Source: a virus (taxonomy: Duplodnaviria; Heunggongvirae; Uroviricota; Caudoviricetes). From it: a stretch of 14,053 bases of DNA. Where the stretch lies: IMG/VR virus record IMGVR_UViG_2617270944_000005, one strand, 5' to 3'. Positions 7,458 to 14,053 of this stretch are shown here, piece by piece (the first letter of the stretch is position 1; each line of letters opens with the position of its first letter). Position numbers and translations under genes: made by a program. Below the pieces are notes generated by a model. It made no database searches and was not told where the DNA came from. It saw nothing but the letters and a program-made list of their open reading frames with translations.

Positions 7458-7623
7458 CTTATCTCTCCCCTTAACGCCGGGTGGCGGAACTAACTGCTGC
7501 ACTGCAAAATTTGAATCCCGCCGTCATGTTCTTACGCCTCGGGCTGGCTACTTAACCCCTGACCACTGCCTGGTAACTCGAAGTATTGCCCTGCATTCTG
7601 TGGGGCGGGGTGGGTGGCAGGCA

Positions 7624-7671
7624 TATAATGTACTTTGTGTTCATTGTTGTAAAGTACATTTAGTACATTTT
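7624..7671. promoter_or_regulatory. Candidate leftward operator/promoter (OL-like): 10-bp inverted repeat AATGTACTTT / AAAGTACATT plus a third AGTACATTT copy
   Basis: Read directly: AATGTACTTT at 7627-7636 and its exact reverse complement at 7651-7660, 14 bp apart, with another AGTACATTT at 7662-7670; plus-strand TATAAT at 7624-7629; possible minus-strand -35 TTTACA (7648-7653) and -10 CATTAT (7625-7630) for leftward transcription toward ydaG. Confidence 0.4.
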
Positions 7672-7743
7672 ATGTGTAAAAAAATGAGATGGGATAAAGT
7701 GAAGCACAAACCCGGAGGAAGGCGCTACCGGATTTATGCTGGT

Positions 7744-8163
7744 TTAAGAGGCTTTTTGTTTTTTCTTTCGTGCTAACTCTTCGTAAATTGCATTGTACTT
7801 CTGTTTTTTCTCTTCAAGAGTTTTTAAAAGTTCATCTGTCTCACTGTCAGGGAGCTCGTCCAGAAGGTCAATGATGATTTTTTGTCTTGGATTTAACTCC
7901 TGATAGAAACGTACCTGTCCACTTTCTTCTGTATCCTCTCCCAAAAGATAGGTTGGTGTTGTTCCTATTAGTGTTGCTAATTCCCTTAATTTCTCCCGGC
8001 GAGGAATTGTTTCGCCATTAAACCATTTGCTAACCGCTTTTGGTGTTAATTTCATTCGACGGGCAATTTCTGCCTGCCTTCCATGTTGTTCATAACCAGC
8101 GTTTTCACAGGCTAGCGCAAGCCTACTGGCGAACTCTTTACGCGCTTTATCTTCATGAACCAT
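7744..8163 (-). CDS. racR: Prophage repressor, XRE-family HTH (RacR-like, cI analogue), 139 aa
   Basis: HTH region QAEIARRMKLTPKAVSKWFNGETIPRREKLRELATLIG; divergent from the cro-like ydaS; no alternative standard start upstream in frame before a stop. Confidence 0.85.
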   Translation of the reverse strand: MVHEDKARKEFASRLALACENAGYEQHGRQAEIARRMKLTPKAVSKWFNGETIPRREKLRELATLIGTTPTYLLGEDTEESGQVRFYQELNPRQKIIIDLLDELPDSETDELLKTLEEKKQKYNAIYEELARKKKQKAS

Positions 8164-8183
8164 AAGTTCAATGATATTCGCTC

Positions 8184-8218
8184 TTGAATGTACTGTCAGT
8201 TCTGTTATAGCATGTACT
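8184..8218. promoter_or_regulatory. Candidate rightward operator/promoter (OR-like) in the racR-ydaS divergent intergenic region
   Basis: Two copies of the same AATGTACT / ATGTACT motif seen at the OL-like site (8187-8194 and 8212-8218, 24-25 bp apart), overlapping a plausible -35 TTGAAT (8184-8189) and -10 TATAGC (8207-8212) for ydaS. Confidence 0.45.
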
Positions 8219-8242
8219 CAAAGTTCACATTGTGAGGGTGAT

Positions 8243-8497
8243 ATGAACCAGAAAACACTTGAAGATGTAATCAAAACTGTTCGCGTTGCTGTTGTGGCCG
8301 ACGTTTGTGGTGTCAGCCAAAGAGCAATCTATAAATGGATGGATAACGGAAAATTGCCTCGCACAGAATATACCGGCGAAACAAATTACGCTGAAAAAAT
8401 CGCTCTTGCATCAAACGGATTATTTTCTGCCGATGCAATTTTAACTATTGGCAGGAATAAAACTACTACGAAAAAGCTGATGGGAGTTGATTCATGA
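8243..8497 (+). CDS. ydaS: Cro-like HTH protein YdaS, 84 aa
   Basis: MNQKTLEDVIKTVRVAVVADVCGVSQRAIYKWM (HTH); start chosen at the ATG preceded by GAGGGTG; the ORF track's 108-aa version starts at 8171 inside the operator region. Stop overlaps the ydaT start (ATGA). Confidence 0.8.
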   Translation: MNQKTLEDVIKTVRVAVVADVCGVSQRAIYKWMDNGKLPRTEYTGETNYAEKIALASNGLFSADAILTIGRNKTTTKKLMGVDS

Positions 8498-8919
8498 AAA
8501 TCAAGCATGAACACATCCGCATGGCGATGAATGCCTGGGCGCATCCGGACGGCGAAAAAGTACCGGCTGCGAAAATTACCAAAGCGTATTTCGAGCTGGG
8601 AATGACGTTCCCGGAACTGTATGACGACAGCCATCCGGAAGCCCTGGCTCGCAATACTCAGAAAATTTTCCGCTGGGTGGAGAAAGACACCCCTGATGCG
8701 GTTAAAAAAATTCAGGCGTTGTTACCAGCTATCGAAAAAGCAATGCCACCTCTGCTGGTGGCCCGAATGCGCAGTCATAGCTCAGCCTATTTTCGGGAAC
8801 TAGTGGAGACGCGGGAACGACTGGTGAGAGACGCTGATGATTTTGTCGCAGTGGCGATCGCTGGTTTCAACCAGATGAATCGTGGTGGCCCTGCAGGAAA
8901 TATTGTGGCTGTGCATTGA
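8494..8919 (+). CDS. ydaT: YdaT (CII-like regulator, also reported as toxic on overexpression), 141 aa
   Basis: MKIKHEHIRMAMNAWAHPDGEKVPAAKITKAYFELGMTF matches Rac YdaT as I recall it; GGAG 8 nt upstream; translationally coupled to ydaS. Confidence 0.9.
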   Translation: MKIKHEHIRMAMNAWAHPDGEKVPAAKITKAYFELGMTFPELYDDSHPEALARNTQKIFRWVEKDTPDAVKKIQALLPAIEKAMPPLLVARMRSHSSAYFRELVETRERLVRDADDFVAVAIAGFNQMNRGGPAGNIVAVH

Positions 8920-10524: not shown

Positions 10525-10858
10525 CGAGATTAAAGTGCATTAGTTCAGATGCAAATTGACATTTTGTGGCACAGGGTAGAGCTAGCGTGGTTGTCCGCTT
10601 TGTGCCAAGAGCAGACGCTGGTAATTCGTGCCTAATATACTTCACTTAACTTATATCCCAGCTTTGATACAGATCATACAAATTAAATGCCCCAGTAATT
10701 GGCAGGCTGAGTAACTTAAAACTCCTTAGAATATAGGATGATTTGTATCGGCACTCATTCCACCATGCATTCCGATTAACCCCGCATAGCCAGTTGAACT
10801 TTGCTACTCTGTGAGAGGTAGTACCTTCTATCCAGTGCGGATTTAATTAATGGAATAA

Positions 10859-13033
10859 ATGATTATGAGTGAAAATGATACAACCCCAAAGAAGTCTACA
10901 AGCCAGATTAACAAAGCGGTATTCTTTACATCTGCTTTGCTAATTTTCCTTCTTGTCGCCTTTGCCGCCGTATTCCCGGATGTCGCCGACAAAAATTTTA
11001 AACTACTTCAGCAACAAATCTTCACGAATGCCAGCTGGTTCTACATACTTGCTGTGGCCCTGATTTTACTGAGCGTCACGTTCCTTGGACTCTCACGTTA
11101 CGGTGATATAAAGCTGGGCCCAGACCATGCGCAGCCTGATTTCAGCTACCACTCCTGGTTCGCGATGCTTTTTTCGGCAGGGATGGGGATCGGCCTGATG
11201 TTCTTTGGCGTTGCCGAACCTGTGATGCATTATCTTTCGCCACCTGTCGGCACTCCAGAGACCGTTGCGGCAGCGAAGGAAGCCATGCGCCTGACGTTCT
11301 TCCACTGGGGTCTGCACGCATGGGCAATTTATGCCATCGTGGCGCTGATTCTGGCCTTTTTCAGTTACCGTCACGGTCTGCCTTTAACGCTGCGTTCTGC
11401 GCTCTATCCCATTATCGGCGATCGCATTTACGGGCCTATAGGCCACGCGGTTGATATCTTCGCCGTGATAGGCACTGTCTTTGGCGTTGCAACATCGCTG
11501 GGTTACGGTGTATTGCAGGTGAATGCCGGTTTGAACCATCTTTTCGGCGTGCCCATCAATGAAACGGTACAGGTCATTTTGATCGTGGTCATCACGGGGT
11601 TAGCGACGATTTCGGTGGTGTCCGGCCTGGACAAGGGAATACGCATCCTGTCTGAGCTTAATCTGGGCCTGGCGGTGTTGCTCCTGGCGCTGGTCTTGTG
11701 CCTGGGTCCCACTGTGCTTCTGCTGAAGTCATTTGTGGAAAATACGGGTGGTTATCTGTCGGAACTGGTGAGTAAAACGTTCAACCTTTACGCGTATGAA
11801 CCCAAGTCGAGCAACTGGCTGGGGGGCTGGACATTATTATACTGGGGATGGTGGCTTTCATGGTCGCCGTTTGTAGGTATGTTCATTGCACGCGTTTCCC
11901 GCGGCAGGACAATTCGTGAGTTCGTGACTGGCGTGTTGTTTGTTCCCGCCGGCTTTACGCTCATGTGGATGACGGTGTTTGGAAACAGCGCCATCTATCT
12001 CATCATGAACCAGGGCGCCACTGACCTCGCCAATACCGTTCAGCAGGATGTTGCGCTTGCCCTGTTTAATTTCCTGGAGCATTTCCCGTTCTCTTCCGTG
12101 CTGTCATTCATTGCAATGGCGATGGTCATCGTCTTCTTTGTAACGTCTGCTGATTCGGGGGCAATGGTTGTGGATACTCTGGCATCAGGTGGGGTGGCAA
12201 ACACGCCCGTCTGGCAGCGAATTTTCTGGGCATCGCTCATGGGCGTTGTTGCTATTGCCCTGCTGATCGCAGGGGGGCTGAGTGCGTTGCAAACCGTAAC
12301 GATAGCGAGTGCATTGCCCTTCTCAGTTATCTTATTAATATCCATATACGGACTGTTAAAAGCCCTGCGTCGGGATTTGACCAAGCGTGAAAGCCTTAGC
12401 ATGGCGACTATTGCTCCTACGGCTGCACGTAACCCAATTCCCTGGCAGAGAAGGTTACGCAATATCGCGTATTTGCCGAAGCGCTCTCTTGTGAAACGTT
12501 TTATGGACGACATTATCCAACCCGCCATGACGCTGGTTCAGGAGGAACTTAACAAGCAGGGAACGATAAGCCACATCAGTGACGCCGCCGAGGATCGTAT
12601 TCGCCTTGAAGTCGATTTGGGCAACGAGCTGAATTATATATATGAAGTGAGGCTTCGCGGGTATAACTCACCGACCTTCGCGCTCGCTGCGCTGGATAAT
12701 GATGAGCAGCAGAGTGAACAACATCGATATTATCGCGCTGAAGTCTATCTCAAAGAGGGCGGCCAAAATTATGATGTAATGGGCTGGAATCAGGAACTGA
12801 ACCGCCCCGGGTTTCCTGGAGAGTGTTTTATCTGTGAACTCAGGCTGCCAGATCATCGTTTCCGATGGAAGCATAATAAGCTTTTTCTGCTTCTGCCGGA
12901 GGAGTATGGCCCAGCCTTCCCAGCAATCGTCGATTGTTATACCAGTCCACCCACGTTAGTGTGGCCAGTTCCACTTCTGCACGGTTTTTCCAGCTCTTAC
13001 GGTGTATTACCTCCGCTTTGTAAAGACCATTGA
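10859..13033 (+). CDS. BCCT-family transporter, BetT-like (choline/osmoprotectant), 3' end interrupted by IS insertion; about 646 native residues followed by an IS-derived out-of-context tail
   Basis: BCCT signature GWTLLYWGWWLSWSPFVGMFIARVSRGRTIREF; collinear similarity to E. coli BetT along its length, including the cytoplasmic C-terminal domain, up to ...YDVMGWNQEL, where the IS terminal repeat begins (12798); roughly 30 residues of the expected C-terminus are missing. An alternative start is the ATG at 10865. Confidence 0.8.
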   Translation: MIMSENDTTPKKSTSQINKAVFFTSALLIFLLVAFAAVFPDVADKNFKLLQQQIFTNASWFYILAVALILLSVTFLGLSRYGDIKLGPDHAQPDFSYHSWFAMLFSAGMGIGLMFFGVAEPVMHYLSPPVGTPETVAAAKEAMRLTFFHWGLHAWAIYAIVALILAFFSYRHGLPLTLRSALYPIIGDRIYGPIGHAVDIFAVIGTVFGVATSLGYGVLQVNAGLNHLFGVPINETVQVILIVVITGLATISVVSGLDKGIRILSELNLGLAVLLLALVLCLGPTVLLLKSFVENTGGYLSELVSKTFNLYAYEPKSSNWLGGWTLLYWGWWLSWSPFVGMFIARVSRGRTIREFVTGVLFVPAGFTLMWMTVFGNSAIYLIMNQGATDLANTVQQDVALALFNFLEHFPFSSVLSFIAMAMVIVFFVTSADSGAMVVDTLASGGVANTPVWQRIFWASLMGVVAIALLIAGGLSALQTVTIASALPFSVILLISIYGLLKALRRDLTKRESLSMATIAPTAARNPIPWQRRLRNIAYLPKRSLVKRFMDDIIQPAMTLVQEELNKQGTISHISDAAEDRIRLEVDLGNELNYIYEVRLRGYNSPTFALAALDNDEQQSEQHRYYRAEVYLKEGGQNYDVMGWNQELNRPGFPGECFICELRLPDHRFRWKHNKLFLLLPEEYGPAFPAIVDCYTSPPTLVWPVPLLHGFSSSYGVLPPLCKDH

Positions 13034-13730
13034 TGCTCTCAGCCATCGCGTTGTCATACGAGTCGCCTGTACTCCCTGTTGATGCCAGTAATCCGGCTTC
13101 TTTTAGTCGCTCCGTATAGGCCAGTGACACATACTGAGAGCCTTTATCGCTGTGATGGATGGTGCCAGACGGACGACGGGCCCACAACGCCTGCTCCAGC
13201 GCATCCAGCACGAATGTCGTTTCCATAGACGATGAGACCCGCCACCCCACGATGTATCCGGCAAACACATCAATGATAAACGCCACATAGACGAAGCCCT
13301 GCCATGTGCTGACGTAAGTAAAATCAGCCACCCACAGCTGGTCAGGTCGTTCTGCCACGAACTGACGGTTTACGCGGTCGCCTGCGGCAACGGCTTTCCG
13401 GCTGATGGTCGTACGGACCTTTTTACCCCGGAGAACACCGGCAAGTCCCATAACCGCCATGAGACGTGCCACTGTACATCTGGCCACCCTGATTCCTTCC
13501 CGTAACAACTGACGCCAGACTTTACGCACACCGTACACCTGATGATTTTCATCGTATACGCGCTGTATCTCTCTCTTCAGCCAGTCGTCGTGCTGCGCAC
13601 GGGCACTGCGTTTATCCGGATGATGTCGCTGTTGCTGACAATGGTAATACGTTGACGGGGCAATATGCAGTTCGCTGCATACCGGTCCGACCCCGTACTG
13701 CTCACGCAGCTTATCCAGCAGTGGCATCAT
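12840..13730 (-). CDS. IS3-family transposase OrfB (DDE integrase-like catalytic domain), 296 aa
   Basis: DDE transposase hallmarks (WVADFTYV ... HSDKGSQY ... [15 protein letters not shown]); in the -1 frame relative to orfA, overlapping it by 4 nt. Confidence 0.9.
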
Positions 13731-14053
13731 TTTTTCCAGAGGCGGTCGAACTCCGCCTTCGCAAAATAAGCGGAAGCCTGGCGAAGGATATCGTTACTGC
13801 GGCGCAGTTCACGATTTTCACGTTCCAGCTCTTTCAGACGCTGACGTTCCGCGCTGGTGAGCCCACCATCACCGCCCCCGGTATCCCGCTCATGCTGGCG
13901 AACCCAGACACGCAGAGTCTCCGGCGTACAGCCAATCTTTGGGGCAATGGAACAAATTGCCGCCCACTGTGAGTCATATTCATCCTGACTTTCCAGAACC
14001 ATACGAATCGCCCGCTGACGGACTTCGGGGGAAAAACGAGTATTTTTAGTCAT
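13727..14053 (-). CDS. IS3-family transposase OrfA (HTH plus leucine-zipper region), 108 aa
   Basis: [30 protein letters not shown]... with a heptad-like [20 protein letters not shown] segment; ends in an A6 run directly before its stop, at the orfB overlap. Confidence 0.9.

Follow-up and report, generated by a model that had tools for sequence, protein, structure and literature searches.

A short word that occurs twice in the same orientation between the repressor gene and the divergent cro-like gene of a Rac-like prophage raises the question of whether it marks operators and, if so, which protein would bind them and in what unit. The preliminary description of this DNA had read the two copies, AATGTACT at 8187-8194 and ATGTACT at 8212-8218, as an OR-like operator in a racR-ydaS promoter region, and both are present on the plus strand, where the surrounding sequence reads ...CTCTTGAATGTACTGTCAGTTCTGTTATAGCATGTACTCAAAGTTCACATTGTGAGGGTGATATG.... 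A formal scan of the window (the whole stretch of 14,053 bp that was analyzed) gives four exact copies of AATGTACT, at 7627 and 8187 on the plus strand and at 7653 and 7662 on the minus strand, against 0.38 expected, a count reached in 0 of 200 dinucleotide-preserving shuffles. For the 7-mer ATGTACT, the whole window holds five copies where 1.07 are expected, a number that 3 of 200 shuffles also reach. All copies of the word are confined to the repressor-cro intergenic region or to the ~130 bp directly downstream of the repressor gene, and the scan of the whole window found none elsewhere in the prophage. This agrees with what had been seen by eye, namely copies only in the two regions flanking the repressor gene, and the observation stands because frequent chance copies elsewhere in the prophage do not occur.

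Two details of the original observation hold only in part. The starts of the 7-mer copies are 24 bp apart, corresponding to ~2.3 helical turns, whereas ~2.4 had been given. Also, the copies had been described as overlapping the -35 and -10 hexamers of the cro-like gene. The candidate -35 TTGAAT (8184-8189) does share 3 bp with the 8-mer, but the overlap with the -10 is only approximate, the hexamer TATAGC (8206-8211) abutting the second copy and an alternative -10, TAGCAT (8208-8213), overlapping it by 2 bp.

Regarding the unit of recognition, the 8-mer direct repeat gives way to a pseudo-palindrome of 15 bp, TGWAC-N5-GTWC(A); ATGTACT comprises its left arm plus one base of the flank and one of the spacer. 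Exact matches to TGWAC-N5-GTWC are found in the window only at five sites, with 8 strand-matches where 0.29 would be expected and none of 200 shuffles reaching this number. Allowing one mismatch in this 14-mer adds positions 757, 4612, 4736, 5446, 7262, 11070, 11384, 11532, 13068, and 13359, which were treated as noise because ~8 matches are expected by chance. A search with the 10-mer AATGTACTTT and two mismatches is uninformative (21 matches against 15 expected), the palindromic 14-mer being far sharper. The preliminary description had overlooked the right half-sites GTTCT (8199-8203) and GTTCA (8223-8227), as well as a third site (8156-8170) and the fact that the upstream copies are arranged as palindromes.

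The region upstream of the cro-like gene would therefore hold three OR sites in place of the two proposed before, the third lying over the repressor start codon. OR1 (8213-8227, TGTACTCAAAGTTCA) matches the pattern exactly on both strands and is located between the predicted PR -10 and the cro ribosome-binding site, covering the expected PR start, and the second ATGTACT copy forms its left arm. OR2 (8189-8203, TGTACTGTCAGTTCT) is in the spacer of the predicted PR and has the first copy as its left arm. OR3 (8156-8170, TGAACCATAAGTTCA), also an exact match to the pattern, covers the start codon of the repressor (CAT at 8161-8163) and the predicted PRM start. On the other side of the repressor gene, OL1 (7629-7643, TGTACTTTGTGTTCA) lies within the spacer of the predicted PL and matches exactly on both strands, and OL2 (7653-7667, AGTACATTTAGTACA; minus strand, TGTACTAAATGTACT) is immediately upstream of the PL -35, touching it. 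The three upstream 8-mer copies fall within these two sites, one being the left arm of OL1 and the other two forming both arms of OL2. With centers at 8220, 8196, and 8163 for OR and at 7636 and 7660 for OL, the spacings are 24 bp for OR1-OR2, 33 bp for OR2-OR3, and 24 bp for OL1-OL2.

Three promoters can be predicted around these sites. PR (8184-8211, plus strand) was read from the sequence and consists of the -35 TTGAAT (8184-8189), a 16-bp spacer, and the -10 TATAGC (8206-8211), with an upstream TG at 8203-8204; it failed the consensus promoter scan, and its -10 does not carry the usual final T. PL (7625-7653, minus strand) came from the scan and has the -35 TTTACA (7653-7648), a 17-bp spacer, and the -10 CATTAT (7630-7625); its leftward targets would be ydaG, ydaF, and the genes that follow up to kilR, recE, and recT. 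PRM (8171-8199, minus strand), found by the scan with 10 of 12 consensus matches, has the -35 CTGACA (8199-8194), a 17-bp spacer, and the -10 TATCAT (8176-8171), from which we infer a start approximately at the repressor ATG and hence a leaderless mRNA. A terminator scan gave no terminator around the repressor gene. As in the bipartite OL/OR arrangement of lambda, one motif thus occurs in two clusters, each over an outward-facing predicted early promoter. The two-cluster reading put forward in the preliminary description, with the same motif on both sides of the repressor gene, is in this respect upheld, and the sites are very probably the repressor operators of an OL/OR immunity region overlapping the early promoters.

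A comparison with phage HK022, whose operators and promoters were taken from the annotation of GenBank X16093 (the sites are labeled there as 'potential' binding sites), reveals the same 15-bp operator form and the same number and order of OR sites. In HK022, oR3 and oR1 are both TGAACCATAAGTTCA, oR2 is TGTACTATCAGTTCC, and the oL sites are TGTACTTAAAGTTCA and AGTACCAATAGTACA. OR3 of the window is identical at 15 of 15 positions to the annotated oR sites with the first of these sequences, OR2 aligns with oR2, OR1 occupies the same position as oR1, and OL1 and OL2 align with TGTACTTAAAGTTCA and AGTACCAATAGTACA, respectively. The HK022 centers (3064, 3040, and 3007 for OR; 2208 and 2232 for OL) reproduce the 24/33/24 bp spacings of the window, and the pR and pL hexamers keep the same relative positions as in the window. 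For example, the annotated pR, TTGACT-N16-CATAAT, is co-linear with the predicted PR, and the annotated pL, TTTACA-N17-CATCAT, is co-linear with the predicted PL and has the same -35 hexamer. MAFFT alignments give 75% mean column identity for the OR DNA across the window, HK022, and phi24B, and 80% identity for the OL DNA against HK022. The operators of the HK022 immunity region were reportedly footprinted by Carlson and Little in 1993 (as cited in PMC8053113). Judged by this homology, direct homologues of the window sites have been known from HK022 since 1989-1993; no paper covered by a full-text search contained the operator strings of the window. From the sequence comparison, the two ATGTACT copies very likely represent the left arms of OR2 and OR1, which belong to a set of five 15-bp operators forming an HK022-type immunity region in a Rac-like defective prophage at ttcA.

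The two elements also differ. The window element is a Rac-like defective prophage at ttcA and not an HK022-like phage, and the gene downstream of cro is cII in HK022 and a YdaT-family gene in the window. Moreover, HK022 has accessory operators, OL3 and a site ~300 bp downstream of OR (PMC8053113). No equivalent of OL3 (53 bp from OL2) or of the far-right operator is present in the window with two or fewer mismatches; candidates for HK022 OL3 and for the far-right site, beyond cro, were located at L003 1209-1223 and 163-177.

Variation among close relatives follows the dyad. In a sample of 82-83 sequences (80 IMG/VR loci with a repressor 99-100% identical, the phages Tritos and vB_EcoS-673R7, and the window), 5 of 45 half-site columns are polymorphic, with 6 minor alleles, compared with 9 of 22 columns of the N5 spacers (106 minor alleles) and 33 of 94 other intergenic columns (207 minor alleles). 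Fisher tests give p values of 0.009 for arm versus spacer and 0.004 for arm versus other columns, which are only indicative because the sequences are related. Among the 82 loci, the OL1 half-sites are near-invariant while its spacer is polymorphic, and in OR1 the only commonly polymorphic position is 8219, in the spacer. At OL2, position 7658 is a T in 74 of 82 loci, so that the 8-mer at 7653-7660 is broken and the arm AGTAC is left intact. The predicted PR -10 varies at 8209-8212.

The same layout of three OR and two OL sites is also found in Tritos, vB_EcoS-673R7, Klebsiella phage 2b LV-2017, and Citrobacter phage Omnitron, and partly in Salmonella phage SI8; the arms are conserved and the spacers have diverged. 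OR2 of the Klebsiella and Citrobacter phages carries TGAAC as its left arm, and for this reason the doubled ATGTACT is not a conserved feature while the dyad is. More distantly, the annotated operators of the 933W type in phi24B (e.g., CGTACTGAAAGTACG and TGAACCAATAGTTCG) show the same dyad geometry, xG(T/A)AC-N5-GT(A/T)Cx, although the outer arm base is often C/G instead of the T/A of the window. 933W and phi24B also have three OR sites, the third of them located over the start of cI, as in the window, and their repressor has a related N-terminal domain (50.7% identity to the window repressor over aa 1-73 by tblastn against phage genomes), but the recognition helix differs (SSKGVSKWFN against TPKAVSKWFN) and the repressor carries an S24 domain, which the window repressor lacks.

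In lambda, the divergent cI and cro genes are separated by three OR operators over PR and PRM, an OL cluster lies over PL, one motif is common to both clusters, and the cI message is leaderless. The window resembles it in all these points, the leaderless message being a prediction here. However, the lambda operators are 17 bp long and share no sequence similarity with the 15-bp operators of the window, the OR2-OR3 spacing of 33 bp and the presence of two OL sites rather than three are further differences, and the predicted PRM -35 is located within OR2, a misfit with lambda-style activation from this operator, so that a lambda-type activation geometry is not evident.

The genes on either side support the comparison with HK022. 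The repressor gene (7744-8163, minus strand) encodes a protein of 139 aa with a Pfam HTH_3 domain (E 1.8e-9), which consists of an N-terminal domain of the HK022/933W type and a short, non-peptidase C-terminal part. The N-terminal domain shares 47.5% identity with HK022 CI over aa 4-102 (E 1e-22; tblastn, phage genomes), and the recognition-helix region is near-identical (TPKAVSKWFNGE here and TPKAISKWFNGE in HK022 CI; over the helix-turn-helix region, HGRQAEIARRMKLTPKAVSKWFNGE and HGRQADLAVRLKVTPKAISKWFNGE). Pfam gives no match to an S24 (LexA-like) domain, and the C-terminal 60 aa do not align with the HK022 or 933W CI. In HK022 and lambda CI, a LexA-like C-terminal domain mediates dimerization and cooperativity; HK022 CI has this cleavable domain, whereas the window repressor would have an unrelated, probably helical part. 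A single-sequence AlphaFold model, used only as a rough helix map because of its low confidence (pLDDT 53), suggests an N-terminal domain of five helices, followed by a linker and by two helices in the C-terminal part, and the sole match among solved structures is the N-terminal domain of P22 C2 (E 0.006). That the gene might be a truncated, HK022-like cI pseudogene was considered and rejected, OL lying only ~77 bp past the stop codon and an identical gene being present in viable phages: the protein has the same sequence as the CI of Tritos, a viable phage, and shares 99.3% identity with its counterpart in vB_EcoS-673R7. The Tritos CI is known as the master regulator of that phage and is among the few genes transcribed in its LF82 lysogen (PMC9928086).

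The cro-like gene (8243-8497, plus strand; 84 aa), with GAGGG (8234-8238) as its ribosome-binding site, encodes a protein of phrog_35 that is 60% identical to HK022 Cro (E 1e-33), and the assignment as cro agrees with the RefSeq annotation of the identical locus. Next to it, a YdaT-family (CII-like) regulator gene (8494-8919, plus strand; 141 aa) has matches to Pfam YdaT_toxin (E 1.1e-9) and to the CII-like activators of phrog_163 (E 3.5e-45). At the junction of both genes, a perfect inverted repeat, TTGATT-N6-AATCAA (8487-8504, TTGATTCATGAAAATCAA), is the single match without mismatches in the window. By analogy with the footprinted YdaT operator OM of CP-933P, which has the same motif in the same position at the end of the cro-like gene (PMC9986795), this repeat is a probable binding site of the YdaT (CII-like) protein.

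These protein comparisons also bear on a different reading of the sites, in which they are real operators used mainly by Cro, or by another regulator of a prophage or the host, and the 139-aa protein is not the maintenance repressor. The atypically short protein, without an S24 domain, would fit such a scenario, as would the fact that Cro is, at 60% identity, the more HK022-like of the two. Nonetheless, the operators of lambda, 434, and P22 are common to CI and Cro, and with this sharing of operators in lambdoid switches, use by Cro is compatible with use by CI. Moreover, the 139-aa protein occupies the cI position between OL and OR, its recognition helix is almost that of HK022 CI, and the gene of the identical protein carries a CI annotation and is transcribed at 24-fold over background in the lysogen of Tritos (PMC9928086). 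Taken as a whole, a scenario with Cro or another regulator as the main user is very improbable.

The names racR and ydaS, given to these genes in the preliminary description, come from the Rac prophage of E. coli K-12. Many E. coli chromosomes match the window at 100% identity; there it corresponds to a Rac-like defective prophage adjoining ttcA, and approximately 1047 of 5426 complete E. coli genomes carry at least 80% of window positions 7500-8500. Its gene content includes intR, xisR, rcbA, ralR, recT, recE, racC, ydaE, kilR, sieB, ydaF, and a ydaG-like gene, followed by the HTH repressor, the divergent HTH gene, the YdaT-family gene, and replication-type genes. K-12 Rac has the same chromosomal position and flanking genes (intR ... 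recE, kilR, sieB, ydaF, and ydaG), the same order of repressor and then divergent cro-like and YdaT-like genes, and repressor-motif copies that likewise flank the repressor gene: TTAGGC occurs seven times within a 7-kb stretch of K-12, always in the same two positions beside racR. However, the window is near-identical to the Rac prophage of K-12 MG1655 only up to ~7618, where a complete divergence begins. The repressor shares just 12 of 33 residues locally with K-12 RacR (E 1e-4, within the HTH only), and the similarity between Cro and YdaS is not significant (E 0.075). Since the repressor and Cro are unlike RacR and YdaS and the K-12 homology breaks at ~7618, the locus is a Rac-type prophage with a different immunity module, in which "racR" and "ydaS" are positional analogies only.

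The operators differ accordingly between both prophages. RacR was footprinted on operators of the form (T/A)TAGGC-n3-GCCTA(T/A), with ATTAGGC-type repeats, and its O3 lies over the racR start codon at a leaderless promoter (PMC9638921). An operator over the repressor start codon is therefore found in both, the leaderless promoter being reported in K-12 and predicted in the window, but the sequence in the window is TGWAC-N5-GTWCA, and the immunity specificity differs. In the window, ATTAGGC occurs once, at 10630, which is the chance level, and is absent from the immunity region, and TGWAC-N5-GTWC has no match in the K-12 Rac locus. Motif and repressor change together.

A second explanation, close to that of the preliminary description, would be that the direct repeats of AATGTACT, as 8-mer or 7-mer, are K-12-type RacR operators in the same orientation that control a lethal ydaS-ydaT pair. 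It is true that the OR 7-mer copies are directly oriented and 24 bp apart and that the A before and the T after TGTAC are largely conserved, which makes an extended arm of ~7 bp reasonable. In contrast, every copy is paired with a conserved GTWC arm at a distance of exactly 5 bp, TGAAC takes the place of TGTAC in OR2 of the relatives, and the 8-mer at 7653-7660 is lost from 74 of 82 loci with the same repressor, where the palindromic arms persist. OR3 has no ATGTACT, yet it is identical to an HK022 operator. Also, RacR and YdaS are not the proteins encoded here, and the footprinted RacR motif is missing from the region (PMC9638921). This explanation is consequently given very little weight, somewhat less than use by Cro.

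The lethality that had been invoked for these sites is confirmed for K-12, where racR is essential because it represses the toxic ydaS-ydaT (PMC5700373), but it is not simply transferable to the window because the repressor/cro pair is a different one and only the YdaT-like protein is homologous, with 33% identity to K-12 YdaT. Even for K-12, ydaS-ydaT were regarded by Jobling as Cro and CII analogues rather than toxins (PMC5917428). In the window prophage, loss of repression would also activate genes on the PL side such as kilR, which makes toxicity plausible.

The least probable explanation, that the conserved words are promoter elements or AT-rich composition kept for RNA polymerase with an incidental repetition, would account for all five sites overlapping or abutting predicted -35, -10, or start regions and for promoter DNA being conserved among the relatives too, but it is hardly compatible with arms that do not coincide with hexamers (OR1 and the right arm of OR3 are outside any hexamer), with a 15-bp dyad present five times at fixed 24/33/24 spacing, with a PR -10 that is more polymorphic at 8209-8211 than the arms in the population sample, or with dinucleotide-preserving shuffles that never reach the counts of the 8-mer and the dyad.

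For the HK022-type operator set, the following mode of action would be expected. A dimer of the 139-aa HTH repressor would bind each operator, with one recognition helix per 5-bp arm. With OR1 (at the PR start) and OR2 (in the PR spacer) occupied, rightward transcription through cro, the ydaT-like gene, and the replication genes would cease, and with OL1 (within the PL spacer) and OL2 (at the -35 of PL) occupied, so would leftward transcription toward kilR, recE, and recT. OR3, which covers the start codon of the repressor and the predicted PRM start of a leaderless message, would provide negative autoregulation, and the HK022-like Cro would presumably compete for the same sites when the switch flips. 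HK022 CI binds cooperatively to adjacent operators and forms OL-OR loops (PMC8053113; PMC7498355). The conserved 24-bp center spacing suggests, as for HK022 CI, that the repressor binds with pairwise cooperativity at OR1-OR2 and OL1-OL2.

Beyond its short repressor, the locus is an ordinary lambdoid switch, and the useful outcomes are a corrected gene identity, an exact map of five sites, and a set of HK022-type operators served by a short repressor that has no LexA-like domain. The exact operator and promoter coordinates, as predicted here, apply to a widespread module that also serves the viable phage Tritos of strain LF82. An annotation trap is corrected as well: at least two unrelated immunity modules occur among the Rac-like prophages at ttcA, and hence the results on RacR operators and ydaS/T lethality in K-12 are inapplicable to the approximately one-fifth of complete E. 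coli genomes with this HK022-type module. If the predicted PRM -35 is indeed buried in OR2, autoregulation may be purely negative rather than involving lambda-style activation.

Finally, the module constitutes a natural experiment, in which a DNA-binding domain and operator layout of the HK022 type are combined with a different, non-LexA-like C-terminal part. A tentative and rather doubtful extension is that a short repressor without S24 domain took over the full HK022-type operator set, which might entail cross-repression of, and immunity against, phages of HK022 immunity and an induction independent of SOS cleavage. If this were true, the Rac-like cryptic prophages of those ~1047 of 5426 complete E. 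coli genomes might confer immunity to HK022-immunity phages.

The window prophage and the Rac prophage of E. coli K-12 MG1655 differ by a swap of the immunity module, whose left breakpoint was placed by sequence comparison at approximately position 7618 of the window (approximately 2618 of the K-12 locus). Both prophages are near-identical up to and including ...GTGGGGCGGGGTGGGTGG and unrelated beyond it, K-12 Rac having TTAGGC-type repeats at the position equivalent to that of the leftward operators (OL).

The repressor encoded in this module (7744-8163, minus strand) is only 139 residues long and, whereas the repressors of HK022 and 933W carry a LexA-like S24 domain, this domain is absent from the window protein. 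Its C-terminal part (residues ~76-139) is charged and was tentatively predicted to be helical. An identical protein is used by the viable phage Tritos. Moreover, codons 2-3 of the repressor gene are encoded within the left arm of the predicted operator OR3 (window 8156-8163), and the alignment of the window, HK022, and 933W-type repressors shows an unchanged Met-Val-(His/Gln) start, ATG GTT CA(T/A). Judged from the sequence, this invariant N-terminus is consistent with a dual constraint, being both operator and coding sequence.

In the promoter scan, the best candidate for the repressor promoter PRM has its -35 hexamer, CTGACA, at 8194-8199, in the middle of OR2 (8189-8203). Given this location inside the operator, a repressor bound to OR2 should block its own promoter rather than activate it. 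The OR2-OR3 geometry in HK022 is the same as in the window. On the rightward side, positions 8209-8212, which comprise the end of the predicted PR -10 hexamer (TATAGC) and the base preceding OR1, are polymorphic across loci with the same repressor, the -10 variants being TATGGC, TATAAC, TATAGA, and TATAGT. This polymorphism may tune PR strength.

Outside the immunity module, the RalA antitoxin sRNA (Rfam RF02694, 225 bits) was located at 1557-1735 on the plus strand, opposite the ralR toxin gene. Also, an IS3-family element occupies 12840-14053 on the minus strand, with an rve integrase-core ORF (12840-13730), an upstream ORF (13727-14053), both on that strand, and an ALIL frameshift pseudoknot (13656-13772). 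The BCCT transporter gene, at whose 3' end this element sits, is a 724-residue ORF in the window and a 1998-bp gene in an otherwise identical chromosomal locus.

Finally, a perfect inverted repeat, TTGATT-N6-AATCAA (TTGATTCATGAAAATCAA), at 8487-8504 spans the stop codon of the cro-like gene and the start of the ydaT-like gene, and is the sole match with 0 mismatches in a motif scan of the whole window. The same scan returned a second YdaT-type repeat with 1 mismatch (TTGATTATTAATAATCAG, 1504-1521). It is located close to that end of the leftward operon where xis and rcbA lie, and could be a chance occurrence. For the 8487-8504 repeat, both the motif and the location agree with the footprinted YdaT operator OM of CP-933P, found at the end of a cro-like gene (PMC9986795). 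The 8487-8504 repeat is probably the CII/PRE-like control site of this immunity module.
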